A stretch of 57,539 nt of DNA from a virus (Duplodnaviria > Caudoviricetes). The translations under genes were made by a program, and so were the position numbers. Position 1 is the stretch's first letter; every line of letters starts with the position of its first letter. Shown piece after piece: positions 519 through 57,539 of the stretch. The stretch covers positions 1 through 57,539 of the IMG/VR virus record IMGVR_UViG_3300033067_000809; one strand, given 5' to 3'. Under the pieces are notes generated by a model. That model saw nothing but the letters and a program-made list of their open reading frames with translations, had not been told where the DNA came from and made no database searches.

Positions 519-719
519 ATGTCCGCAGAACTGAACACGACTGAAAACGCATTGGATGCCGAGCTGCAAAGCTGGCTGGATGATGCAGACGTCGCATTCC
601 AAAAGCGTGAGGCTGATCGTCGCGCCCTTGAAAAACGGGCGCTGAAAAACCTTGGCAGCTGGGAGCAAATGAAGTTCGACCTGCGCCGCCACCTCTACAA
701 AAAGGCGATAGGCGCGTAA
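519..719 (+). CDS. Early hypothetical protein (66 aa, MSAELNTT...)
   Basis: AAAGGA SD before ATG 519; true start inside ORF 141..719. Confidence 0.8.
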   Translation: MSAELNTTENALDAELQSWLDDADVAFQKREADRRALEKRALKNLGSWEQMKFDLRRHLYKKAIGA

Positions 720-766
720 ACAGTTTAGACCATCGGTCAGCGTGCTGGCCTTTGGTGTGCACTGTT
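719..766 (+). promoter_or_regulatory. Conserved intergenic hairpin, copy 1
   Basis: Aligns without gaps to copies 2 and 3, with compensatory base changes. Confidence 0.8.
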
Positions 767-798
767 CTTTTTGCACATAACCGCCAAAGGAAAAAACC

Positions 799-1329
799 AT
801 GTCCGAAGTAACTATCTCCAAGACCATCCTGGCCGAAGCTTTCGCAAAGGCCCGAATCGAATTTGGAGTCGGCACCGAAGCTGACTTCACGGCGACCCGG
901 GTTAGTGCGAAGGGCAAGGCCACCACGCGCTCAGAGCTGGGCGTGGCCCTGTCGGGGAATAAGGTTGAGCGGGCGAAGCATGTGGCGCATATCGCGCTCA
1001 CCATGTGGGTCACGGGCAAGCTGCCGCAACTGTCGGCAGAGATTCGCCGCGTGTTCCCGAAGCTGGAGCAGGCTGTAAGCGCGCAAAACGCCGCGATCAA
1101 TAGCCTGATCAAGACTAATCCTGAGCTGGCCGGCAAGCTGCGGCTGATCAGTATCGACCGGCCTGCAAAGGCCGATATTGGCAAGATGTTCGATCTTGCC
1201 AAAGACCTGGCCGGCGCCGACAAAGGCGAAAAGGCCAAGATGATCGCCGTAGGGCAAGTCATCAATGAGTATGAAATCCGGGCCCGCGCCATTGCGCTCG
1301 AGCTGGCAGCGCTGGAGCAGACCGCGTAA
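799..1329 (+). CDS. Early hypothetical protein (176 aa)
   Basis: Same RBS block as the gene at 519 (GCCAAAGGAAAAA(A)CCATGTCCG); coding-like composition. Confidence 0.85.
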   Translation: MSEVTISKTILAEAFAKARIEFGVGTEADFTATRVSAKGKATTRSELGVALSGNKVERAKHVAHIALTMWVTGKLPQLSAEIRRVFPKLEQAVSAQNAAINSLIKTNPELAGKLRLISIDRPAKADIGKMFDLAKDLAGADKGEKAKMIAVGQVINEYEIRARAIALELAALEQTA

Positions 1330-1381
1330 GACGGTACAAACCATTGGCCAGCGTGCTGGCCCTTGTTGTGCATCGTCGCAC
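1330..1381 (+). promoter_or_regulatory. Conserved intergenic hairpin, copy 2
   Basis: 50/52 nt identical to 1671-1722. Confidence 0.85.
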
Positions 1382-1396
1382 GAAAGGAGGAACGCC

Positions 1397-1672
1397 GTGT
1401 CAAGACAGATTACAGTCCGCCGCGCCAAAACGCCCTACAAGCCCGAACCGAAGGTGTTTAGTGGGGGTACCGCCCCGACGCCCGAACGGGCCGTCGTAGA
1501 GGGGTCAGGGCGCGTTCTGCAGGGGGGTTTGCCCCCAGTGCCATACCGCACGCCCTGGGCGCGGGCCGACCTCACGGGGCGCGGGGCGCGGGAGCCGTTC
1601 GCTTCCAAGGCGGTCAAAGCCGAGTTCTATGCCGCCAGGCGGGATGCCGCCGGCGATCCGGTGGACCAATGA
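1397..1672 (+). CDS. Early hypothetical protein (GTG start)
   Basis: AAGGAGG SD upstream of GTG 1397. Confidence 0.7.
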   Translation: MSRQITVRRAKTPYKPEPKVFSGGTAPTPERAVVEGSGRVLQGGLPPVPYRTPWARADLTGRGAREPFASKAVKAEFYAARRDAAGDPVDQ

Positions 1673-1722
1673 CGGTTCAAACCATTGGCCAGCGCGCTGG
1701 CCCTTGTTGTGCATCGTCGCAC
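1671..1722 (+). promoter_or_regulatory. Conserved intergenic hairpin, copy 3
   Basis: 50/52 nt identical to 1330-1381; overlaps the upstream stop codon. Confidence 0.85.
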
Positions 1723-1741
1723 AGTGCCAAGAAAGATACAT

Positions 1742-1945
1742 ATGTCCGCACACCAAAAAAACCCGGCGCGCACACTGCAGCGCATCGATTGGACAGACTT
1801 AGAGTCTGTCATGGCCCAGGCTCTGCGCTTTGGGCCTGGCATGGTCGTCGTCAAGCATGATACCCGCGCAAACTTCAACATTACACACGCGGAGCGCCCA
1901 GACTTGTGGGACAGGCCTGACGTGACCGTACTGTTCCGCACATGA
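1742..1945 (+). CDS. Early hypothetical protein (67 aa)
   Basis: ATG 1742 after the hairpin and a purine-rich leader. Confidence 0.65.
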   Translation: MSAHQKNPARTLQRIDWTDLESVMAQALRFGPGMVVVKHDTRANFNITHAERPDLWDRPDVTVLFRT

Positions 1946-3938: not shown

Positions 3939-4297
3939 GCCACGAAGAAACCATGCTGGCCGCATACATCGCGGCTATGTACTTCACCGAAACCGGCGAG
4001 GAGGGGCAGCCGCCGTCCTACGCCCCGATGACCCCACTGACCAGGATGCATGCTCACAGGGCTTGTCGCGACTTTCGCGAGGCGGTCGGTCCGCACGGCG
4101 GCGCCAGCCTGGGCTCGATCGAAGGCTACGACGAGCTGCCCTGGGAGCAGATCGGCCACGACTTGTGGCTGACGCGCAACCGGCACGGCACCGGCTTTTG
4201 GGACCGGAAGTGCTACACCGAAGCCCAGGCCGACTTGTTCTGCCGCCTGGCGGCAGCCATGGGCTCCTACGACCCCAACTTCTTGGAAACCGAATGA
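3935..4297 (+). CDS. Conserved hypothetical (GHDLWLTRNRHGTGFWDR motif)
   Basis: GAGGAG SD and ATGA coupling. Confidence 0.75.
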   Translation: MSHEETMLAAYIAAMYFTETGEEGQPPSYAPMTPLTRMHAHRACRDFREAVGPHGGASLGSIEGYDELPWEQIGHDLWLTRNRHGTGFWDRKCYTEAQADLFCRLAAAMGSYDPNFLETE

Positions 4298-15564: not shown

Positions 15565-16088
15565 CCATGGCTACTAGCAAACGCCCTCGCAAGAAGTACC
15601 GCCCCCAGCCGTCGATGCTGGCCAACCCGCTCGAGTATGTGCTTGATGGGTTTACCCCGCTGACGCAGCAGTCTGACTACGTCGCGAAGTGGGAGCTGCA
15701 GGTTCACACTTCCCTGGACTCCTTGCTCCGGGGCACGGGCACACCACGGGATATGTCCGTCATGATTGGAACTCAGTCGCTTTGCGCTGCGGTTCTGGCC
15801 AAGCTCAAGCGCGGCGTCGAGTATGTCGACGTGCTGGCCGAAGCACACCAGGCCATTGCGGCGCTTGCAGACCGCTACCCGGCAGAGAAACAATACGTAT
15901 GCCGGACCAACGAGGGCGAGGCGCTGCGCACATTGGTGGAGCTGCTGGAAGCCTACATCGACACGCTGTCCGTGCGTGACATGGAGCAAGTCCGGGCGGT
16001 CGCACTGCGCAACATGCGCGGCGTGGTGTCCAACAATGGGCAGCCGACAGGAAACACCCGGATTCCGGGTATGGGGGTGCGAGTGTGA
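15561..16088 (+). CDS. Hypothetical (KRPRKKYRP N-terminus)
   Basis: Coupled ORF. Confidence 0.7.
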   Translation: MTMATSKRPRKKYRPQPSMLANPLEYVLDGFTPLTQQSDYVAKWELQVHTSLDSLLRGTGTPRDMSVMIGTQSLCAAVLAKLKRGVEYVDVLAEAHQAIAALADRYPAEKQYVCRTNEGEALRTLVELLEAYIDTLSVRDMEQVRAVALRNMRGVVSNNGQPTGNTRIPGMGVRV

Positions 16089-29470: not shown

Positions 29471-32400
29471 TCACTCGCCGGCCGCCTGCATGGCTGCAGC
29501 TTTTTCGTTGGGCCGGTACTGGACACCACCGATCGTCTGCTTCTCCCGCCTGGCCTGCTCTTGCGGCGCCTTGAGCAGGTTCGACACTGGCTGCGGCTGG
29601 AACCCTTCCGCCTGGCGGGCTCGCTGCAGCTTGCTCCAGGATTCGCGGGCGTCTTGCATGGCGCCAGTGTCGCGATCGCGCGCGGCGCGGGCGTAGGCGT
29701 TCTTGATCTTGCTGGCCCGCTCGGTGAACCGGTCTTTGGTGTCCTGGAACCGTTGGCGTTTCTCGTAGGTCTCGGACATGCCGGGCGTTGTGAAGCTCAG
29801 GGCCTTCCAGAACGTCTCCAGCTCGCTGACGTCTTTGGGCGGCAGGATCACGTCGCCGTTGCGCCGGGTCATGCCCTCGTCCGCTATGCGGTAGGCCTGC
29901 ATGGCAGATGACAACCCCTTGGGCATCAGCATCTCCAGGCCCTTGTACCAGTCGCCGTTCTTCATCAGCCCCAAGCCATCCAGACCTCGCACCACCATGC
30001 CGCCGCCAGCACCGCCCACGAGCTGACCGAAAGCCTCGAACTGGCCCGAGGGCGTTGACAGGTCCGCATTGCTGAACGGCATGACCGAGAGTGCGTTGCC
30101 CGCGCCGACGCTGCCGGAGAGGTCCAGGCCGCCGAGCGTCGGCGCGCCGCGCATGACCAGGCGAGCCCAGTCCTTGTCACCGATAGCACCCTCGATTTCC
30201 GCAGCCAGGTCGTACTCTTTGTCCTCATCGCCCAGCAGGGCCGCAGCCAAGAACTGCGCTGCGGCGAAGCCGGGGAGGCCGCGCAGGCCGGCGAAAGCCG
30301 CCGTGTGGAGCAGCGAGTAGGCCAGGGCCTTGGTCGCTGCGCGTTGCTCCTGCGTGGTGAATCCGGCGCTGCGCAGCATCTTGGCGTAGTACGACAGCTG
30401 GATGAGCTGGAACTTGCGGAACTGCAGCGCCACCTTGCCGACGCTCGTGTTGAACATGCGCGGGGCGTTGAACCGGCCATAGTCGCCGTGAGTCTCCGTA
30501 AGTATCCGGTCAGCGTAGTCAGTGGCCGCAGCGGTGTCGCCGCCGTTGCGCGCCAGCTCCAGCCGGTAGGCAGCCAGCGCCGTGGACATCCGGTTGAGGA
30601 TCTCACCCTTTTGCACCAGCATGCGCAGGCCCTTGTTGACCTTGTTCAGCCGGTCCTTGACCGGGCCGGCGCCTTCGACGCGGAACTCGCCCAGCTCGGT
30701 CTCCATGCCGACGTCGATGCGCCCGCGGTTTGCCAGCTCCTGGATGGCGTTCTTCTCGCCGGCCGTGTTGCCCACCAGGCTGTAATCGAACTGCCGGCCA
30801 GAAAGCAGTTTGGTCGACATGATCATGGCCTTGAGGTCTTTGTATGCCTCGAACTGAGCGCTCGACGCAGCTGCATACCCATGCTTGCCTGCCATCACCG
30901 GTACCGACATCATCCACGGCTGCGTCAAGTTGGCCAGGTAGTAGGCCGGGCTAGTCATCAGGTAGTAGACCGAAGACAGGTGCAGCAGCTTGCGCAGCGC
31001 GGGGGTGCTGGAGTCCTCCATCGACTGGGCGTAGCGCGCGGTCAGTTCGTTGAAGAGTTCCGCTTTGCGCGCGCGGTTGCCGCCCCGGTCGCGCTCCTTG
31101 CGCATAGCCTGGATGCTGTCTTGGATTTTGCGGTTGTACTCCACAGACGCCAGGAAGTTAGCATCGGCCCGCCCCTGGGTGGTGAACGACCGCAGCATGT
31201 CGACTTCACCGGCAACCCCCCGGCGCTTCATCTCCGTTTTGCGGGCGCTGTTCTCGGCCAGGGCCTCGAGGTAGAGATCGGTCACCATGCGGCGCAGCTT
31301 TGCAGCCCCCGCTTCGCCGGCGGCCTGCTTGGCTTCTACTTGCGATTGCAGCTTAGTCAGCGCGCGCAGCACCGAGTCCCCGCCGAACAGCGCGTCCATG
31401 TTGGCCTCCCGCTCGAAGAAGTCCACCGCGTCGCCATCCCGACCAAAGTGCCCCTGGGCCTGCAGCTGGCGCGCCAGCTCTCGAGCCTCTGCACGCCCCT
31501 CCGTAAAGCTGACGTGGTAGTGGTCGGCCTGCTTCTGCATCGTCTGGATCTGCTTTTGGTCCCCGGCGGCCTCCGCAGCTCTGTAGGCCTGCGACTTCGC
31601 GACCACCGCATAGGTGCCCATGCGCTTGATGGGCGCATACGGGCGACCTTCCTGCGTGGCAAACAGGTCCTTGAACCGGGTGATGACCGCCTGCTTCTCG
31701 CCTTTCAGCTTGGCTTCAAGCGCTGCGTTACCGTCAGCGGCGGCCGCAGCGATCAAGGCGTCGTACTCCGTGTTGGTGTGGTCCATGACCGTTTTCTTTT
31801 TCAGGGCGAGCATCTTGTCACCGTGGTCAAACACCGCTTTGACGAAGACCTGCGCTTCGTCACTCAAGGCATCGAAGCGGTCCTGCATGTCGCGGTCGGC
31901 GTATTTGCCGTACCCCCACTTGCCCTCACGGGTGGAGTCGAAAATGAACTGGTTGGCGGTGTCAGCCTGGCCCTTCTCCGGCACCAGCCCGCGGTCTTTT
32001 TCGGGCACCAGCGCATACAGGTCGGCGATCTTCTCGACCTCACGTTCCAGCTCGCGCGCTTTGGTGTCGCGCCGGGCCAGGTTGTCGCCGAAGTTCTTGG
32101 CGGCTTGGATGCCGGCCTGGCTGGCGAACCCAATCAGGTCGCTGGTGAACACCACACGGTCCAGCGCCTTGTTACCCCAGCTGCCCATGGTGTCGAGCGA
32201 ATCGCGCACCGCAGGCTGCACCTGGGCGGGGAGCTGGTTGATAGCCCGCTGGACTTGGCCGGCCGTGGCTTTCTTGGGCACCGACATCTTCACGGTGTTA
32301 TCGGGCGCCGACGCAGCGCGGACGTCGCGCGACACAATCTCTGCCGCACCGTAGGCCAAATCCACCACGTCCTGAGCGGTCATAGTGTCCAGCTCACCGA

Positions 32401-35400
32401 GGCCGATCTTGGCGATGGCCTGCTTGAGCAGGCGCACCACAGTGCTGAACCAGCGAGCCAGATCACCCTTCATGCCCATCGCAGTCGGGTCGATACCGTT
32501 CTCCACAGCAGCGCTGACAAAATAAGCCACAGTCTCCGAATTGACCTGGGCATTAGGCGTGCCTGCCGATACCACGCGGGTCAGGGCTTCCTGTGCCAAC
32601 GTGGACTCGAGCGAGCCGTCATTAAGGTCGGCCCAATTGCGAACCTGCGCGGCCAGCGAAGCAAACTCACCCGCATCCAGCAGTTCTTCGATTCCGAGGT
32701 GAACGCCGATTTCATGCAGCAGAACCGATCGGGCGTTGCCCGGGGCAATGTTGCCAGCCACCAGGTAGGCCTTGCCACGCCACACGAATCCGTTGGGCTG
32801 TTCACCTTTGAGCGCACGGCGCGCGCCGGGCGGCAGTTGCTCCACCGACTGCACGATCGACACCAGGTCGGGAGTCAGCGACAACCCCAGCTTGGCGATC
32901 TCGGTTTTCACACGCGCTACGTTAGATCCACCGCGCTCAACGGTGCTCACCATCTGCTGCGTGCGCTCGTCTTGGGCTGCGGCAGACTTGTCGTCGATGA
33001 TGGTGGCGCCCTCAGCGATCTTGTCCAAGAACTGCTTCATCGTCTCGTTGGGCAGGTACTTGGAGCCCTTGAGCGAGTAGTAGAACTTGCGCATCGCCGC
33101 GCCCAGCCGGGAGAAGAACTGCTCGACCACACCCACTGGCTTGTCCGAAGAGACCGCCCAGCGCGAGACCTGGTCGGCGTACCATTCGCTGAAGCTCTTC
33201 CAGTATGGAGTCAGTTCGTTGGCCTGCATGCCGGCCGGGATCGAGGTGGCGCGGCCAGTCGCACGCGCGCGCAGCTCGGCAACGAACTCGCGGGCTGTCC
33301 TCTTGGCGTTGGCGGCCACGAACTTGTCATGCTCGGCGCGGATAGCCTTCTGCGTGTCCTTGTCGGCGTTGTTGAACGCCTCGCGCTCGTGGATGTGGCC
33401 GAGCTCATGCGCCAAAGTCTCCAACATTTTGAGGGTGCTGCTGCCCTTGGTAAACGCAATGTAGTAGTCGGCGCCCACCTTGCGCGCAGATCCAGCCTCA
33501 TTGGCGTTCAGAGCCGCGGAGCCAATGGCGCGATGTGAGCCTGTGAACTCACCCTTGTCAGCGCGCGCATCCTCGATAGTGGTGACATACACGTTGGTCT
33601 TGACGCCGAGCTGGTTCTTCCAGCCCCGCAGGACACCAGTGACGCGCGGGTCGACTCCGGCTGAGAATGACAGGCCGTCAGCATCAAATCTGATGAATGG
33701 GTCGGTGGCGTGCTTCTCAGCAGCGGCAGCCTCCAGCTCCTTGACTTTGGCCACCAGCATGGCTTTCTGTTCGGGGGTGAACAGGCTGCCGGTGTAGCGG
33801 TCGACACCAACAGACGTGCGGGAGTCCCCCATGGCGCCAGAGTAAACCGGCTGCCCGTTGAGGGCTGAGTACCCCAGGATCAGCGCCATGTCACCTTCTT
33901 GCCACGCCACCATGCCGCCTAAGTTCTCGGCGTGCAACTCAGCTTTCGCACGCTGCGCTGCAGTGGTGGCCTCTTTACGCACCTCAGCGGCCGGCTGCAT
34001 ACGCTGCATCTCGCGGCGCACGTCGGCGGGAGTCCAGTTGTCCTCACCAAACTCGACAAAGTCCGTCTGCTGCGCGCGGGTCAGCTCGGCAAACTTGGGC
34101 GCTCCAGGAATGCCAGTGGCGACAGCGTCCCAGGCCTCGGCGGCCAGCTCGCGCTGAGTCTTGATGACCGCCGGAGCGCTTACTTTTTCGGCTTGGGGGC
34201 GGCTTTCGGTTTTGCCGCCTTTTCCGGCAGGCTTTTCGGCGCTGGGTACTTCTTGTCCCACTTCGCCGCCAGCTCCGGCTTCTGGCTGTGCAGGAACTTT
34301 TGCTGCGCTTTCGACTTGTACGGCATTGTCAACTCCTCGGGCTTTCAGTAGGTCGGTGATTTCACCAGCGAGCTTGGTGTTCTTGATGGTGTCGCGAACG
34401 TAGGGCAGCAAAGTCTGCAGGTCTTCGGTCGACAGCGGCTCGAGCTTGCGGTTCGCAGCTTTCCATCGGGCCTGGGCAGCCTGCTGCTCGGGCGTGGCCT
34501 TGGACTCAGCAACCACGGGTGTGCGGACGGCCTTCGGTGGTTTGGCGCCGACTTCCTCTTTGCGTTTCTTGGCCTCGGTCCACGCCTCTCGCAGAATCCT
34601 ATTCTGCTCTTGGATGGCGGACGCTTCCGCTTCCGTCACAGCCGCCGCCATGCCTTCCTTAGCTTTCGCAGCCGCGTCTCGGGTAGCTCGAGCGGCACTG
34701 CGGAACTCCGGCCCCATACTGCGAAGCTGGGCGGTAGCAGTGCGCAGCTCTTGGATTTGACGCTCCAGTGTTGCCAGCTTGCCGATCGCACGATCAACTA
34801 CAGTGCCGGACGCTTCTTGTGACCACCAGCGGTCGGTGCCGTCACTCACGCTCATACCAGAGCCTTCGTCCGCATCAAATTCAATGCCGATTTTGGACAT
34901 CTCCTTGGATGCGCCAGCCGCGTCGGTGCGAGCGTCTGCATCTTCCAGCTGCTCTATCTGGCCCTTGAGGTCAGCCAGCTGCTGTACTTGCTCTGGGGTT
35001 GGCTGCTCTACATTCTGCAAGTCCTTGTATGCCTTTTGGGCTTTGCTCAGCGCAGTTGCATCCCCACGAGATTTGGCTCGGATGCCCAGTAGAGACAACA
35101 CTTGAGATTCCGTGTAGCCCAGTCGAATACCGGCCTTCACCATCTTCGGCTCGTCAATGCGCGACTTCGCCGTGTGGTAGTTGATGCCCATGGCTTTGGC
35201 CACGGCTTCCAACACGATAGTTTTGGACCCCTCTGGTGCGATCTGGCGGGCTTTCAGGAGCTTCTTGGTCTGCGCAATGAACTCGTCTTGATTGCCTGCC
35301 CCCCTAGACGTGCGGAACATCTCGCGGAAGATCGCGTCAGCCGCGGCTTCGTCCATGGGCATCTCTCGCGCGTCAGCAAGCGCCACGCCAACGTCGGCGT

Positions 35401-37675
35401 CAGCAACCTGCGCTTCCAGTTCGGCAGCCAGACCTTTCTGGCCGGCGGTTTGTGCGATTTCTGCAGCGATGCGCAGGTCTTCATCCTTAGGCAGGTTCAA
35501 CGCTGCGCGCTGCGGAGAGATGCTGGCTGGGGCTTCGCCCTCGGGAGCTACATACGCAGCCGGCGCGCCAACCACAGGTTGCACTCGGCGCTTGCGAGAC
35601 ACGACCGGCTCCACGGGTGCTGCAGGAGCAGGTGTCGACGGCGCGCGCGGTGCGGCTAGGTCCGCAGGTGCTGCAGGAGCCACAACGGGGGTGGCGGCCG
35701 CAGGCGTTGGGCGTTCCAAGCCGACAGGCGTGGTCTGGGGCGCAGCCACAGGAGTCGCAGCCGGATATCCTTGCTCTTCAAATCGCTTAATGTCCGCCGG
35801 TGACCTAATCAGACCAGCGTCGAAAGCTGACCTGGCGCGCACCAGCACAGGGTCTTTGACGCCAGAAATGGTGCTTTTTCCTTGCTGCAAAGCCGTAAAT
35901 GCGGCGTCGTAGAAATTAGTCGATATCGCACCGGCCAGCCCGACAAACGCGCGGTCAAGACCGGTGGTACTTTGTTTTGCGCCGGCGGTTGGCGTAGCCG
36001 GCAAGGCCAAACTGGATGGCGCAGTCGCTGGCGCGCGCGGCGCAGTCAGGTCCACCGGTGCAGAACCGGCCGGAGCTGCAGGCTGAAGAACACCCTGACG
36101 AAACACGCGCGGCGCGGGGGCGGCCGGGGCAACCGTGGTGGGTGCCTGTGGGGCTTGCAAACCAACTTGTGGCGGCGCTGCAGCTGCGGCCCGCTCAACA
36201 GCCCATTGATCGAGCGCCTTGATGACTGAGTCCAGTTTCCCCCTGGAGCTCAAGCCTTTGCCGGAGGCCGCCATATTCCAGAACGCGTCCATCTCCGGGA
36301 TCGTCGGGTTGATCCCGTTGGTACCCATGACGTCCCACAACTCGCGCGCCAGCTTGGTGGGCTTCTTGCCGCCCATGCGCGCCAGGATCTCTGCGTCGAT
36401 GTCGACGCCTTGGTCCGCAGTGCCCGCTTGGTCGATGCTCGGGGCTTGAGGCCCCTCGTTCGGGCGCATGAACCCATTCGGCGGCTGTGGGCCTGAGTTT
36501 GGCGGCACAAACCCCGGGCGGGGCATCGGACCTTGAATGGCCTCGAGCTGCCAGAGCTGCTGCAGGTCGTCCAACTTGATGGCGCCGTTGCGCAGCATAA
36601 TCGCGTCGGCCATGGACAGCTCGCGCTCATGTCCAGCCATGCTGCTGGTGTCCTGGACGAACTGCCCGCTGCCTCCTTCGAACAGGTTGCCTACGGCCTT
36701 GGCGTAGTTCTTGTCTGTAGCGTAGAGCGTCTCGTCGACACCAAGCGCCTTGTTGAACCAGTCTTGCGTGAATGGTTGCACTTCGGGTTTGAGCTGGTCA
36801 GGTGCGACGCCGACCGCCTGTTGTGTACCGCGAGCAGCGAGGTCCGTAGCGCCGCCAGCATCTGCGGCAGCTGATCGGCGCCAACCACCAAGACCACCAC
36901 TCACTGCACCACCAAGCAAACCGCCAGCAACTAACGACTCCTGGTACCGGCTAACAGCATCAGGATCGAACATGGTCTCAGAGCTCACAGCGGTTCGCCC
37001 CGCCTGGTTTGCAAACTCTTGCAGCGTTTCAGCGGTGCCTTCAGCCAGCATCCCTTTGGCACCGGTGGCTGCGGTGCGTGCGACCCCGCCGGTAAACCCC
37101 GTCAGCTTGTCCAGTTGGCCGGCGCCGAGTGCGTCCAGAGCGCGAACCCCAGTGCCCAGAGAGCGTCGGGCAAACATGCCCTCTATGCCGAAGCGATCGG
37201 CCGCGCCATATGCCAGGCCCAACGGTATTGCGGAAGTCAGATCGGTGCGGCCGCCAGCCTCACGCTGGTTTTGGAGGACGTCGCCGAGCCCTAGTGCAGA
37301 GCCTGCAGCCCACGCAGCGCCAGGGCCGCCGATTAGGCCTGCTGCTGCCACCGGGATCATGGACGGCAAAGATTGTGCGCCAACTCCAGCCAGCCACTGG
37401 GCGGTCTCCCCAAGCCCCTGGGCTTCGGCAAAAGTCCTCGGTGCGCCGGTCTGCTCGAAGTAGCGCTGTGCGTCGGCGTTTGCAATGGCCTGCTGCTCTC
37501 GGCGCCAGTCGCCAGAAGACAGCCCGACAGCTTCGCCAATACCCAGCAGGCCGGCGCCCAGGCTCCGAGCTCCAGAGCCCAGCATTGTGCCGAGTCCAAC
37601 GCTCTGGGGGACTTCTGCGGGGGTGCCACCCCCGAACATGGCTTCAAATTCTTCGGGAGAAAGCTGCTTAGGCAT
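29471..37675 (-). CDS. Giant internal virion/ejection protein (2734 aa) with two zincin-like motifs
   Basis: Last late gene; Gly/Ala-rich N-terminus; AHELGH and LHEIGVH motifs. Confidence 0.8.
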   Translation of the reverse strand: MPKQLSPEEFEAMFGGGTPAEVPQSVGLGTMLGSGARSLGAGLLGIGEAVGLSSGDWRREQQAIANADAQRYFEQTGAPRTFAEAQGLGETAQWLAGVGAQSLPSMIPVAAAGLIGGPGAAWAAGSALGLGDVLQNQREAGGRTDLTSAIPLGLAYGAADRFGIEGMFARRSLGTGVRALDALGAGQLDKLTGFTGGVARTAATGAKGMLAEGTAETLQEFANQAGRTAVSSETMFDPDAVSRYQESLVAGGLLGGAVSGGLGGWRRSAAADAGGATDLAARGTQQAVGVAPDQLKPEVQPFTQDWFNKALGVDETLYATDKNYAKAVGNLFEGGSGQFVQDTSSMAGHERELSMADAIMLRNGAIKLDDLQQLWQLEAIQGPMPRPGFVPPNSGPQPPNGFMRPNEGPQAPSIDQAGTADQGVDIDAEILARMGGKKPTKLARELWDVMGTNGINPTIPEMDAFWNMAASGKGLSSRGKLDSVIKALDQWAVERAAAAAPPQVGLQAPQAPTTVAPAAPAPRVFRQGVLQPAAPAGSAPVDLTAPRAPATAPSSLALPATPTAGAKQSTTGLDRAFVGLAGAISTNFYDAAFTALQQGKSTISGVKDPVLVRARSAFDAGLIRSPADIKRFEEQGYPAATPVAAPQTTPVGLERPTPAAATPVVAPAAPADLAAPRAPSTPAPAAPVEPVVSRKRRVQPVVGAPAAYVAPEGEAPASISPQRAALNLPKDEDLRIAAEIAQTAGQKGLAAELEAQVADADVGVALADAREMPMDEAAADAIFREMFRTSRGAGNQDEFIAQTKKLLKARQIAPEGSKTIVLEAVAKAMGINYHTAKSRIDEPKMVKAGIRLGYTESQVLSLLGIRAKSRGDATALSKAQKAYKDLQNVEQPTPEQVQQLADLKGQIEQLEDADARTDAAGASKEMSKIGIEFDADEGSGMSVSDGTDRWWSQEASGTVVDRAIGKLATLERQIQELRTATAQLRSMGPEFRSAARATRDAAAKAKEGMAAAVTEAEASAIQEQNRILREAWTEAKKRKEEVGAKPPKAVRTPVVAESKATPEQQAAQARWKAANRKLEPLSTEDLQTLLPYVRDTIKNTKLAGEITDLLKARGVDNAVQVESAAKVPAQPEAGAGGEVGQEVPSAEKPAGKGGKTESRPQAEKVSAPAVIKTQRELAAEAWDAVATGIPGAPKFAELTRAQQTDFVEFGEDNWTPADVRREMQRMQPAAEVRKEATTAAQRAKAELHAENLGGMVAWQEGDMALILGYSALNGQPVYSGAMGDSRTSVGVDRYTGSLFTPEQKAMLVAKVKELEAAAAEKHATDPFIRFDADGLSFSAGVDPRVTGVLRGWKNQLGVKTNVYVTTIEDARADKGEFTGSHRAIGSAALNANEAGSARKVGADYYIAFTKGSSTLKMLETLAHELGHIHEREAFNNADKDTQKAIRAEHDKFVAANAKRTAREFVAELRARATGRATSIPAGMQANELTPYWKSFSEWYADQVSRWAVSSDKPVGVVEQFFSRLGAAMRKFYYSLKGSKYLPNETMKQFLDKIAEGATIIDDKSAAAQDERTQQMVSTVERGGSNVARVKTEIAKLGLSLTPDLVSIVQSVEQLPPGARRALKGEQPNGFVWRGKAYLVAGNIAPGNARSVLLHEIGVHLGIEELLDAGEFASLAAQVRNWADLNDGSLESTLAQEALTRVVSAGTPNAQVNSETVAYFVSAAVENGIDPTAMGMKGDLARWFSTVVRLLKQAIAKIGLGELDTMTAQDVVDLAYGAAEIVSRDVRAASAPDNTVKMSVPKKATAGQVQRAINQLPAQVQPAVRDSLDTMGSWGNKALDRVVFTSDLIGFASQAGIQAAKNFGDNLARRDTKARELEREVEKIADLYALVPEKDRGLVPEKGQADTANQFIFDSTREGKWGYGKYADRDMQDRFDALSDEAQVFVKAVFDHGDKMLALKKKTVMDHTNTEYDALIAAAAADGNAALEAKLKGEKQAVITRFKDLFATQEGRPYAPIKRMGTYAVVAKSQAYRAAEAAGDQKQIQTMQKQADHYHVSFTEGRAEARELARQLQAQGHFGRDGDAVDFFEREANMDALFGGDSVLRALTKLQSQVEAKQAAGEAGAAKLRRMVTDLYLEALAENSARKTEMKRRGVAGEVDMLRSFTTQGRADANFLASVEYNRKIQDSIQAMRKERDRGGNRARKAELFNELTARYAQSMEDSSTPALRKLLHLSSVYYLMTSPAYYLANLTQPWMMSVPVMAGKHGYAAASSAQFEAYKDLKAMIMSTKLLSGRQFDYSLVGNTAGEKNAIQELANRGRIDVGMETELGEFRVEGAGPVKDRLNKVNKGLRMLVQKGEILNRMSTALAAYRLELARNGGDTAAATDYADRILTETHGDYGRFNAPRMFNTSVGKVALQFRKFQLIQLSYYAKMLRSAGFTTQEQRAATKALAYSLLHTAAFAGLRGLPGFAAAQFLAAALLGDEDKEYDLAAEIEGAIGDKDWARLVMRGAPTLGGLDLSGSVGAGNALSVMPFSNADLSTPSGQFEAFGQLVGGAGGGMVVRGLDGLGLMKNGDWYKGLEMLMPKGLSSAMQAYRIADEGMTRRNGDVILPPKDVSELETFWKALSFTTPGMSETYEKRQRFQDTKDRFTERASKIKNAYARAARDRDTGAMQDARESWSKLQRARQAEGFQPQPVSNLLKAPQEQARREKQTIGGVQYRPNEKAAAMQAAGE

Positions 37676-52995: not shown

Positions 52996-54476
52996 CAGTA
53001 GGCTCCAGTCTTTTGATTGATGAATGTTTCGGTATTGGTAATCTCGCTGGCGCTTGCTTGTTTGCCAGCAATGACAAGCTGATGTAGGCGACCGTTGAAA
53101 AATCTGCTTGAACCAACCCTTGCGCCAATGTAAATTGGTTGATTACCAAAGTATCCAGTACCCGCGCTTGTCAGATACCAAGCCACATTGCTTGGCGTTA
53201 CTCCGTTTATTTTGCTTGCAATTTCCTGATCTTTGGTTGTTCCGGCGATATCGTAATAAATTGAGAGTAAATTTGTTATTGGTGCAATGTAGTTTAAGTC
53301 AGCTTTTGCAATAAGCGAAGTTCCTGCCAGTCCAAATTCGTAATTGTTGATAGGCGTGTAGTTAGCACTAGCAACAACAGAGAATCCTGGAGTGCCAGGC
53401 GTGTACCAAGGGCCATTTTCCACGATAACCCCAGTAGCAGCATCACTCAACTTCCTAACCCCAGCGCATACAAACATTTTGTCCGTCGCAGTGAAGTCAA
53501 TTGAGTTCGTCTGCATGGAACTGCTGGTGCCATTGAATCGCAGATATGGCTTGAACCCCACGGTATCGTAGTCTGTGCTGGTGTTGACGCGCTGGTAGGC
53601 AGACTGGCCTAAGGAGTCGTTGGTTGCGCGAATGTCTGCCTGGGTAACTGACCCGACAACTGTGACAACCAAAGACCCCGCTGCAGCACTGAATGTGTAT
53701 GTGCCCGCAGTCACGGCAGCCAAAACTGACGACCCAGAGAGTGCGATTGTCCCAGTCCCCGAGAAGGTCAGCCTGTAGCTCGTGGCTTGCGTCGTGACCG
53801 TTTGATTGCCTAGGGACTCTGTACCCGCCAGCAGGTTATATCGAGCACTCAACGTAGGTCTGTTTGCGCTGGTGGACTGGAAGGCGTGGTTGCCTGTGAG
53901 TTCTTTGACGGAGATGTTGTCTACTGTTCCTGCGAACGCATTACCTTTTACACCAAGTTGACTTGAGGTGCTTGTAAACATCCTAAACACATATGCACCA
54001 TTAGATGTTATGTTGCTAGAGTACGTAGCTGGCGCACCACCAACATAAATTTGCAAGCTGCCCGACGTGTAGTTACTAACGACAACCTTGCATTCGTAGT
54101 ATCTATATGCTTTTATTGCACTTGGTGTTTGGTATAAAAAATTCGATGTACCAGATGCAACCGCCTCACCTCCGGTAATAGTCCACCCACCACCTATTAA
54201 CCATCCAGTTGAACCACCAATGAAGTCTCCATTAGTAACCAACTCCGGCCCCAGCACTAACCCTTTGCTTTTATCCAGCATCAGCCCCACCGGCTGCTCG
54301 ACAGCCGTCACAGGAGTGGTGCCTGCGGCGTCTTGGAACAGTGTGCTGTAGTCGCTCGGGTCGTGCCAGAAGCCGTTGACGCCTGGGGTGAATATGGATG
54401 CAGGGGTAAACACTGGGGGTGCGGATAACCCGCCAACGAGCCTCGTGATTGCGAGCGATATGCTTGACAGCTGCAT
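52995..54476 (-). CDS. Putative head fibre with carbohydrate-binding/LamG-like domains
   Basis: W.DPSD.STLFQD.AGTTPV; ELVTNGDF; beta-rich; IYIGAR...FFNGR. Confidence 0.65.
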   Translation of the reverse strand: MQLSSISLAITRLVGGLSAPPVFTPASIFTPGVNGFWHDPSDYSTLFQDAAGTTPVTAVEQPVGLMLDKSKGLVLGPELVTNGDFIGGSTGWLIGGGWTITGGEAVASGTSNFLYQTPSAIKAYRYYECKVVVSNYTSGSLQIYVGGAPATYSSNITSNGAYVFRMFTSTSSQLGVKGNAFAGTVDNISVKELTGNHAFQSTSANRPTLSARYNLLAGTESLGNQTVTTQATSYRLTFSGTGTIALSGSSVLAAVTAGTYTFSAAAGSLVVTVVGSVTQADIRATNDSLGQSAYQRVNTSTDYDTVGFKPYLRFNGTSSSMQTNSIDFTATDKMFVCAGVRKLSDAATGVIVENGPWYTPGTPGFSVVASANYTPINNYEFGLAGTSLIAKADLNYIAPITNLLSIYYDIAGTTKDQEIASKINGVTPSNVAWYLTSAGTGYFGNQPIYIGARVGSSRFFNGRLHQLVIAGKQASASEITNTETFINQKTGAY

Positions 54477-54478
54477 GG

Positions 54479-54742
54479 TCAGTACATCGCGACGATGTTA
54501 GCAGCCGTGGTGCCAGTAGCCAAGACTTTGGTCACCTGGATTGGAAGTATGGACCCGGCCCCCACATTGGAGTAGGTCACGTTTCCGTTAAGGTCTGCCA
54601 CGGCCACGTTGCCTGCAGAGCCCACATACAAAGCGCGCGTGGTGTACAACACTGTGGTGTCGCTGGGGGTGACGGGCAGGCCGTAGCCTGCGGGGGCTGT
54701 GGATGCGGCACCGGTGTGTTCTGCGGGGGTACTGATGGCCAT
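54479..54742 (-). CDS. Head-spike base protein (RcGTA Rcc01079-like)
   Basis: VTPSD...TRALYVG.AGNV.V...LPI.V..V.ATGTTA..IVA signature. Confidence 0.85.
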   Translation of the reverse strand: MAISTPAEHTGAASTAPAGYGLPVTPSDTTVLYTTRALYVGSAGNVAVADLNGNVTYSNVGAGSILPIQVTKVLATGTTAANIVAMY

Positions 54743-56594: not shown

Positions 56595-57108
56595 TGGGGA
56601 TTTCCTTGGTTTCTGCGTCAATCGTAACCGGGGGTGCTGCCTGCGTGTTGCCGGCCGACAGGCTGATGGAGTGCCCGCCGCCCATGTCGATCGTGATCTG
56701 GAACCCTGGGCCGGCCGTGCTGGTGCGCTCTTCCTTGGGCTCCAGCCCCCCGGCTTTGATCAGCGTCTTCAGGACGTCGTGCTTCTGGGCCAGGCTGGCT
56801 TCCGAGCTGGATGCGGACAAGTAGACTTGGTCCAGCAGATCGCCGGCCATCCATGCGGCCTTGGCTTTGAATGTGACTCCGTTGCGGTCGAACTCATTGC
56901 GCTTGGCCGCCACCATCAGCTGGAACCACGGCTGCGCCTCAAGCTCCTGGTACTGCTGGATGCTCAGTCCGTGCCGTGCCGCCACCACCAGGTCGTCTTC
57001 CAGCCCCAGCGCTATGCTGGCCACCATTTCGTCGGACAACTGAGGAAAAGACTTGGTGCTGGGCTTGTACTCCAGCGGCTCGTCGTCGATGTCCATGTCT
57101 GGTGTCAT
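56587..57108 (-). CDS. Putative terminase small subunit
   Basis: Upstream of TerL; helical body with GFQITIDMG C-terminal strand. Confidence 0.6.
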   Translation of the reverse strand: MTPDMDIDDEPLEYKPSTKSFPQLSDEMVASIALGLEDDLVVAARHGLSIQQYQELEAQPWFQLMVAAKRNEFDRNGVTFKAKAAWMAGDLLDQVYLSASSSEASLAQKHDVLKTLIKAGGLEPKEERTSTAGPGFQITIDMGGGHSISLSAGNTQAAPPVTIDAETKEIPNA

Positions 57109-57278
57109 TGCTCGGCCTTCTTGGATGCGTCAGCTCTGTCCATGGCCTTGAGCAGACCGACCAGTGCGATGCGTATGATCTCGGAAACCGTGACGCCTTT
57201 GCGCGTGGCCAAGGCCTGGACTCTGTCGAACAGCTCGGGTTGGAACACCATGTTCCAGCGTCGCGTGCTTTTTTTCAT
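57105..57278 (-). CDS. Ribbon-helix-helix (CopG/Arc-like) protein, 57 aa, not in the ORF track
   Basis: MKKSTRRWNMVFQPELFDRVQALATRKGVTVSEIIRIAL...; AGGA SD; ATGA coupling to TerS. Confidence 0.8.
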   Translation of the reverse strand: MKKSTRRWNMVFQPELFDRVQALATRKGVTVSEIIRIALVGLLKAMDRADASKKAEQ

Positions 57279-57392
57279 ATGTATCCTGGGTAGTTTATAC
57301 GTAACGCATTCTAAGCCGTTTTTGTTTTGTGTGTATGTTTGCCGTTTTTACTACTTTACGTATTGGGCGATACGTATCTTTTTTATTTTTTT

Positions 57393-57539
57393 CATGCTGT
57401 GTGCGCGGTACGTAGGGGGCGGGGGCGGGTGGGGTGGGGGGTGGGGGGCCTGTGGGGGGTAGGGGGGGGGCCTGGACCTAGACAAGCCGCATAGGGTGTA
57501 GGGCAGCAAGCCTGGCGCCGCAAGGAGCTAGACATGCTG
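57393..57539 (+). repeat. Right copy of terminal direct repeat
   Basis: Matches 1-146 with one extra G. Confidence 0.95.

Follow-up and report, generated by a model that had tools for sequence, protein, structure and literature searches.

The virus record IMGVR_UViG_3300033067_000809 (IMG/VR; Caudoviricetes) was analysed in full as a single window of 57,539 bases, for which CheckV gives a completeness of 97%. Between the small genes that open its plus-strand block lie three copies of one hairpin of 48 nucleotides (nt), and the structure, distribution and possible role of this hairpin are the subject of the present report. The last ~146 bases of the record (57394-57539) repeat positions 1-146, with one G-run of different length, so the record start is either arbitrary or a terminal repeat, and the genome, whose IMG/VR class is 'linear', is circularly permuted or carries a direct terminal repeat. 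A G-rich tract (~24-80) lies inside this repeat. The original prediction had described hairpins that delimit the 'first four genes'; with the record start arbitrary this does not stand for the genome as a whole, but genes 1-4 are indeed the first of the plus-strand block, which they open after an AT-rich divergent control region (57,280-57,393 plus 1-518).

From 519 to ~29,170 the plus strand encodes small orphan genes, then a RadC-like gene, a family-A DNA polymerase, an SNF2 helicase and a DUF927 primase-helicase; the minus strand, from 57,278 down to 29,471, encodes a terminase-like gene, an SU10-type portal, a tail-tip protein and a protein of 2734 amino acids (aa). GC content along the genome is ~0.56-0.65. 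By the polymerase, the nearest named phages are the Pseudomonas phages Rollin and KPP25 and the Rhizobium phage RHph_TM3_14A, at ~31% identity, and relatives of the terminase are at most 49% identical. DNA sequencing runs of nine studies, from freshwater, wastewater and groundwater, contain the early region.

The three hairpins and the genes they separate

All three hairpins lie on the plus strand between early cistrons. A repeat search groups them into one family of 52-nt units, in which 719-770 is 69% and 1671-1722 is 96% (50/52) identical to the reference unit at 1330-1381, the latter value reproducing the one given in the original prediction, whose three sequences and coordinates were correct when checked against the window. 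Copy 1 (719-766) starts at the last base of the TAA stop codon of gene 1 (717-719) and is followed by TTCTTTTTG (765-773 onward). Copy 2 (hairpin 1330-1377; 1330-1381 with a following GCAC) begins one base past the TAA of gene 2 (1327-1329) and precedes the ribosome site AAAGGAGG and a GTG start at 1397. Copy 3 begins inside the TGA stop of gene 3 (1670-1672); the interval 1671-1722 once assigned to this hairpin is the 52-nt repeat, of which the hairpin proper takes up 1671-1718 and the conserved GCAC the rest (1719-1722). The same GCAC stands directly after copy 2 and 6 nt further on in copy 1, where an insertion of 6 nt relative to the other copies produces a U-run after the base of the hairpin. 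The flanks of copies 2 and 3 are unrelated, though the copies themselves are nearly identical.

The base of the hairpin abuts or overlaps the upstream stop codon in three of three copies, each of which also lies ahead of the next ribosome site, as had been noticed at the outset; the hairpin end is 32, 19 and 23 nt from the next start codon in copies 1, 2 and 3, respectively. The spacers that bear hairpins measure 79, 67 and 69 nt, and later genes of the plus-strand block overlap or are at most 28 nt apart. A scan for sigma-70-like promoters detected none in these spacers (719-798, 1330-1396 and 1671-1741), the best candidate by eye agreeing at 7/12 positions, so the cistrons are probably co-transcribed. 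With up to two mismatches allowed, the 16-nt core GGYCAGCGYGCTGGCC occurs at three sites (six matches over both strands, against 0.58 expected), a count reached in 0/100 shuffles. When a covariance model was made from the three copies and run unfiltered on both strands of the window, copies 1, 2 and 3 scored 75.7, 82.3 and 81.3 bits and their reverse strands 27-35 bits; no other site exceeded 12.6 bits, and these are the only copies in the record.

Gene 1 (519-719, plus strand as are genes 2 to 4) encodes 66 aa of no known family and is absent from some strains. Gene 2 (799-1329; 176 aa) has no Pfam or PHROG match and belongs to a small family of eight clusters with 47-99% identity. Gene 3 (1397-1672; 91 aa), the conserved gene of the set, contains the motifs LQGGLPPVPYR and REPFASK and is represented by 19 protein clusters, again with no Pfam or PHROG match; 8 of its 13 listed strain differences fall at codon position 3 (manual count), which supports its being a real gene. 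Gene 4 (1742-1945; 67 aa) occupies a variable slot between hairpin 3 and a TAGGGCAAACCCTA hairpin (1970-1983). Genes 1 and 2 share the string GCCAAAGGAAAAA(A)CCATGTCCG, as originally reported, and this proves to be part of a longer translation-initiation repeat of 34 nt on the plus strand, at 495-528 before gene 1 (ACATA..GCCAAAGGAAAAACC ATGTCCG) and at 775-808 before gene 2, the two being 76% identical. The start region of gene 4 (1736-1752, plus strand) reads ATACAT ATGTCCGCAC, with the ATGTCCG that is common to genes 1 and 2.

Pairing, strain variants and relatives

The structure first proposed for the hairpin has 16 pairs, or 48 cells over the three copies, and 95.8% of these cells are paired. 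Two pairs of the basal stem have changed on both sides, from A-U to G-C, and two further changes are one-sided, one from G-C to G-U and one from U-G to C-G, exactly as described in the original prediction. The middle 4-bp helix (ACCA/TGGT) stands in copy 1 but contains a C-U mismatch in copies 2 and 3, and RNAalifold redraws it, keeping the basal and apical helices in a consensus of -20.71 kcal/mol (-19.17 from folding and -1.55 from covariation). With internal loops of 4x4 and 2x2, the 16 pairs amount to ~22 stacked steps; in the larger loop the 3' side, GUGC, is invariant and the 5' side is variable.

Several measures differ between the strands. Copies 1, 2 and 3 form 16, 15 and 15 pairs when read on the plus strand and 15, 14 and 14 on the minus strand, and both one-sided transitions give wobble pairs on the plus strand but A-C mismatches on the minus strand. 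As RNA, the plus strand folds with -23.1, -23.3 and -21.9 kcal/mol for copies 1, 2 and 3 (z -3.59, -3.10 and -1.38), and the minus strand with -17.7, -23.0 and -20.6 kcal/mol (z -2.67, -2.90 and -1.08). As DNA, the values are -8.2, -9.3 and -7.4 kcal/mol for the plus strand (z -1.65, -1.81 and -0.61) and -6.3, -9.2 and -8.5 kcal/mol for the minus strand (z -0.88, -1.68 and -0.88). None of 200 shuffles folds as well as the RNA of copy 1. When 12 random substitutions were placed on copy 1 in simulation, at least 15/16 pairs were kept with p=0.064 under the observed transition bias and p=0.003 without it; at least 15/16 pairs together with at least two double changes gave p=0.021 and p=0.0014, respectively. 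The hairpin is supported as a real repeated element that favours the plus strand, and its structure is likely, though not proven.

Strain variants were read from contigs of four public runs (X4-X7) with at least 80% likeness to the window. Close strains carry one to three hairpins. Five joints touch genes 1-4 in the first 2 kb (511->792, 512->1412, 516->1412, 1676->1978 and 1722->1968), of which three are bordered in the ribosome-site repeat and two have a border in hairpin 3 or at its end. The joint 511->792, in X6, falls inside the ribosome-site repeat, where 14 letters fit both sides, and deletes gene 1 with hairpin 1. The joints 512->1412 (X4) and 516->1412 (X7) connect the leader ribosome site to codon 6 of gene 3, and these strains have neither genes 1-2 nor hairpins 1-2. 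Record 27 of X7 matches the window across gene 3 and hairpin 3 as far as 1722, where the 52-nt unit ends; beyond it, 287 other letters replace the 245 nt of gene 4, and the alignment resumes at 1968. The remaining joint (1676->1978, X6) could have arisen spuriously, since copies 2 and 3 fit two places, and we give it little weight. In an X6 contig the end of gene 3 (..GDPMDQ) runs into a hairpin similar to copy 2, and all contigs that extend over the gene 3 end carry the hairpin there (including X4 record 3, X5 record 11 and X7 record 27). In an X6 contig, just before 1412, the end of a gene-2 homologue (..ALEQ, TAA) overlaps the ATG of a gene-3 homologue as TAATG (reading by eye), and the latter begins MRSRV, the N-terminus of gene-3 clusters P0002-P0008. 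The idea that the hairpins are recombination handles thus receives direct support from strain variants, with the qualification that the joints make use of the ribosome-site repeat no less often than of the hairpin. The original prediction is right in its description of the structure, and it was for its recombination idea that the evidence grew.

Homologues of gene 3 were found by an alignment-based scan at 12 IMG/VR loci (47-72% identical). Single-protein searches for loci in IMG/VR with gene 2, a 183-aa protein and gene 3 gave no match, nor did a search with the alignment of the gene-2 family. In distant relatives the stop codon of the gene-3 homologue is followed by a TAGGGnnnnCCCTA hairpin (TAGGG..CCCTA) and lineage-specific iterons, and gene 3 always lies just upstream of the iteron region. 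The window also has the TAGGGCAAACCCTA hairpin and iterons, but only after gene 4, so gene 4 and hairpin 3 look like an insertion into an older arrangement. The iterons of the window (TAAGACA) are at 2070-2140 and 2380-2400, within a non-coding stretch of ~600 bp after gene 4; relative L062 has a TAAGACA iteron directly after its gene-3 homologue (4150-4260), and in other relatives this place is taken by iterons of other sequence (TTAATCCAA, GGAATATTC); the region thus looks like a co-evolving binding-site system or an origin.

Database searches returned nothing that could be taken for the hairpin itself. Rfam gave no match at gathering score over the whole window and none at E<=1 in 1-2600, and a blastn search of 50,697 phage records with the early region, run in both near and distant modes, gave none either. 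Of two exact-pattern scans of IMG/VR, one had no match and the other returned three unrelated GC palindromes (14-17 bits). A 21-base core pattern had three matches in JGI metagenome contigs, all within coding DNA, and only four chance matches in GTDB contigs (one genome for each of 185,579 species): one a duplicate of a metagenome match, one in what we read as an apparent DNA ligase gene, one scoring 11.7 bits and one with no covariance-model hit. Where reported, covariance-model scores at the JGI and GTDB matches were at most 20.9 bits; two loci had none. Analogous repeated hairpins after stop codons were also sought in the distant relatives, which have other palindromes and iterons and no analogue.

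Possible roles of the hairpins

Placement, plus-strand bias, stronger folding as RNA and promoter-less spacers point to three copies of one lineage-specific stem-loop that would be transcribed in a polycistronic early mRNA from the plus strand. The reading that we tentatively prefer, at a little under an even chance, is that these intercistronic RNA stem-loops process or stabilise the early mRNA, that copy 1 may also terminate transcription, and that the corresponding DNA serves as a homology patch. At the 3' edge of each cistron the hairpin would offer a site to a double-strand-specific nuclease, by analogy of the RNase III type, and the invariant GUGC opposite a variable 5' side would suit a single-strand cut in the large loop. 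As an alternative to processing, the hairpin would block 3'-5' exonucleases, the upstream message ending in a protective hairpin. The analysis shows the repeats, where they stand, that they can fold and how cassettes differ among strains; that the hairpins are transcribed, that the RNA folds in vivo and that cleavage, stabilisation or termination may follow is inferred. No RNase III gene of the phage's own was found in the record.

Copy 1 is marked by terminator-like rows of a scan at 735-750 and 740-760 and, taken as a whole unit with its TTCTTTTTG tail, looks like a terminator; the U-run that its 6-nt insertion creates after the base suggests that it probably also attenuates or terminates transcription. 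A separate hairpin at 2141-2180 (-12.1 kcal/mol, z -1.07) stands between an A-run and a T-run; its 5' part is 71% like the first 28 nt of copy 1, and it may be the terminator of the early gene block. The original prediction had also joined the hairpins and a leader RNA in one control system, and this has no support: nothing links the two. Between 247 and 372 lie a sigma-70-like site, GTGGCA-17-GATAAT (9/12), and a canonical-looking terminator, CCCGGC..GCCGGG followed by CCATTTTTGC (347-372), which together could give a short leader RNA; strains X4 and X7 skip 153-336, and the promoter part is therefore not conserved.

At the level of DNA, strain comparison lends the homology-patch role direct support. 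The 52-bp hairpin unit and the 34-bp ribosome-site repeat are short patches of identity, and homologous recombination between such patches would add, delete or replace small cassettes of early genes.

A number of results weigh against the preferred reading. No U-run follows the complete hairpin in copies 2 and 3, whose tail after the apical stem is weak (5 T in 8). The RNA fold of copy 3 is matched by 16 of 200 shuffles and is no better than many. The covariation claimed in the original prediction is confirmed in each of its individual changes but weak in its statistics: 58 of 500 column shuffles reach the observed value, and on two independent sequences the signal is only marginally significant (p 0.02-0.06 transition-biased). 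Because copies 2 and 3 are near-duplicates, leaving just these two sequences, the covariation is suggestive and not proven; a palindrome maintained as DNA, moreover, would show compensatory changes too. Among 40 of the 569 strain differences, those in hairpin 3 are at 1680 (A>G) and 1686 (T>A), both unpaired positions, so the stems as a whole cannot be called variant-free. In the X6 strain with TAATG, genes 2' and 3' are coupled with no hairpin between them; hairpin 2, at least, is therefore dispensable and not needed to express genes 2'/3'. Among the runs with the early region, none is on record as RNA. Finally, a covariance-model search of phage genomes, proposed along with the original prediction, found no homologue: the element occurs in none of the five whole records of terminase relatives (0/5), and the 12 gene-3-homologue loci give weak hits only (9.4-11.0 bits, E>=4, the best at E=4). 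Since it is missing from all distant relatives examined, the hairpin is a lineage-specific feature and not an old, conserved device.

The strongest rival, which we nevertheless consider unlikely, holds that the hairpins are a repeat at DNA level only, cassette-borne leftovers (of a former moron terminator, for example) that are kept as recombination patches and have no RNA function today. Its standing comes from the dispensability of hairpin 2 in one strain and from the youth of the element. A relic of this kind would agree with a hairpin number of one to three among close strains, with the lack of hairpin 2 where genes 2'/3' overlap, with the absence of the element from distant relatives and with the 96% identity of copies 2 and 3 between unrelated flanks, which suggests recent duplication or conversion. 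It agrees less well with copy 1, which is 69% identical to copy 2 and yet has 16/16 pairs with compensatory changes, with the like placement at the stop codon in 3/3 copies, and with the presence of the post-gene-3 copy in every strain contig that covers that place.

An operator in double-stranded DNA, in which a dimeric phage or host regulator of the early genes would bind the 16-bp palindrome GGCCAG-N4-CTGGCC, is improbable. Copy 3 has the full 16-bp palindrome without a mismatch, and no part of the element is better conserved than the core, but the half-site of copy 1 is broken by a change that keeps RNA pairing (T-G), and conservation and pairing, with compensatory changes, reach 16 nt past the palindrome on each side. 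The phage's obvious operator-like motifs (ATAYGTAT and the TAAGACA iterons), besides, are different and located elsewhere. The motif ATAYGTAT has 13 matches on both strands at nine sites (0.20 expected), within 1736-2483, at 15893 and within 57277-57377; they are concentrated downstream of gene 4, ahead of the gene at 2543 and within the divergent control region. The perfect palindromes 2002-2027 and 1965-1986 are among these sites, which are probably the operator set of a phage regulator. A 57-aa gene by the control region (57105-57278, minus strand) weakly matches the ribbon-helix-helix family RHH_1 (E=0.0011; 19.3 bits against a cut-off of 20.5), and its product is a candidate binder of these sites.

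Also improbable is a reading in which the 3' half of each hairpin overlaps a sigma-54-type promoter (CTGGCC-N-TGTGCA, with GG-N10-GC spacing) that would start transcription ~12 nt downstream and leave leaders of 14-27 nt that include the ribosome site. The sigma-54 consensus is GG-N10-GC in a TGGCAC / TTGCW context. Each of the three copies has this spacing and conforms to the loose pattern TGGC-N8-TGCW, at a suitable distance from the following start codon. Such loose matches are frequent in the window, though (21 against 9.4 expected), two consensus positions are mismatched in each copy, and neither a sigma-54 activator nor a sigma factor gene was found in the phage; an activator-dependent promoter would be odd for the first genes and would leave the compensatory changes of the 5' arm unexplained. 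The window's best sigma-54-like match is TGGCACCACGGCTGCT at 54500-54515 on the minus strand, 24-39 nt upstream of the start of the terminase-like gene at 54476.

We see little prospect, too, for a small mobile palindromic element, similar to miniature inverted-repeat transposable elements, repetitive extragenic palindromic (REP) elements or attC sites, that a dedicated enzyme would have put between the genes. Hairpin 2 is present or absent between otherwise homologous genes, and the form, an imperfect palindrome with unpaired bases, would suit such an element. Against this, PF00589 finds no tyrosine recombinase in the record, while the control is positive in 14/14 genomes; the core pattern has only chance matches elsewhere (GTDB four, JGI three, IMG/VR none and three); and the polymorphism of hairpin 2 also swaps the ribosome site and the first five codons of gene 3, a pattern resembling recombination and not clean insertion. 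An integron-like attC cassette was dropped as a candidate, no integrase having been found in the record.

Hardly credible, lastly, are hairpin promoters in single-stranded DNA that would serve a virion RNA polymerase, as in N4. Three hairpins do stand at the start of an early block, with early and replication genes on one strand and a giant protein and structural genes on the other. The annotated relatives of the giant protein, its PHROG hits and its language-model neighbours, however, mark it as a PLxRFG/DarB-like polyvalent protein; solved RNA polymerases do not match it, a scan for polymerase motifs found none in it, and hairpins of the template strand would carry A-C mismatches. This candidate was dropped, the giant protein giving no polymerase signal. 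A Pfam search for the T7-type polymerase family had no match, but its control matched no genome either and the result is uninformative. The giant protein (2734 aa; 29471-37675, minus strand) matches in its C-terminal third the PLxRFG/DarB-like giant proteins of ~60-kb podoviruses (PEp14, PBC5, Parlo and SopranoGao), the language-model neighbours of residues 1-1950 carry large polyvalent protein (LPD) domains, and the whole is probably an ejected multi-domain anti-defence protein.

Comparison with known systems

Stem-loops that process or stabilise an early mRNA, as we tentatively propose here, would have several counterparts. REP elements are imperfect palindromes by stop codons in bacterial operons and may form a barrier to 3' exonucleases. 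The phage hairpins are likewise imperfect palindromes directly after stop codons, but they are not a host-wide repeat family, as the four chance core matches over the GTDB species genomes indicate. With intrinsic (Rho-independent) terminators and attenuators they share a GC-rich stem-loop, in copy 1 with a U-run after it; unlike such terminators, copies 2 and 3 are not followed by a U-run where the hairpin as a whole ends, and the U-rich tail past the apical stem takes part in pairing. The hairpins are also very unlike the canonical-looking terminator that the phage has at 347-372.

In coliphage T7, the RNase III sites R0.3-R1.3 (R1.1, for example) lie between the early genes. According to one published account (PMC1540722), RNase III substrates consist of two helical turns, with coaxial stacking allowed, and internal loops limit cleavage to one strand, which leaves a protective 3' hairpin. 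The phage hairpins are similar, being repeated irregular hairpins in early spacers, each with a quasi-continuous helix of about two turns (~22 steps) and internal loops. By the same analogy they could leave a 3' hairpin on the upstream message, and the comparison with RNase III sites that was made in the original prediction seems a reasonable one. They differ from the T7 sites in having no sequence relation to them, no Rfam family match and a copy number that varies between strains, and the copies are far more alike than a nuclease site needs.

Early regions of lytic phages show the fastest turnover of genes for host takeover and anti-defence. To our knowledge, how small orphan early genes are exchanged and still correctly expressed is known in detail only for T4-type phages. 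There, according to two reports (PMC2839356, PMC4122927), promoter-early stem-loops (PeSLs), each a stem-loop with a ribosome site, flank small orphan genes and are the crossover points for insertions, deletions and replacements between close relatives. The phage of the window resembles this arrangement in its intergenic stem-loops with ribosome sites beside orphan genes, and in strain insertions, deletions and replacements that are bounded by the motifs. It departs from it in two respects: PeSLs carry a strong sigma-70-like promoter, and none is detectable in the spacers here; and PeSLs are AT-rich, ~100 bp long and present by the dozen, whereas the window has three GC-rich units of 52 bp in a podovirus-type genome.

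A more far-reaching version, which we regard as doubtful, would make the hairpin unit and the ribosome-site/ATGTCCG start the two ends of a self-contained early-gene cassette in an exchange system that needs no recombinase, a podovirus counterpart, by analogy, of T4 PeSL mini-circles or integron cassettes. If this were true, a 52-nt element would both set the 3' end of a message and guide the insertion of new host-takeover genes, and early genes would turn over in number and identity between co-occurring strains. As a signal for RNA processing or stability the hairpins would be a compact, portable insulator between cistrons; should they have no function at the RNA level, they still mark recombination break-points clearly, which is of use to comparative phage genomics. 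We file them with the intercistronic stem-loop cassettes known from the early regions of phages; among published concepts, the PeSL of T4-type phages comes closest. Here an uncultured freshwater and wastewater phage unrelated to those phages follows a PeSL-like logic with a different element, a GC-rich, promoter-less hairpin joined to a conserved translation start, of which natural strains carry one, two or three cassettes.

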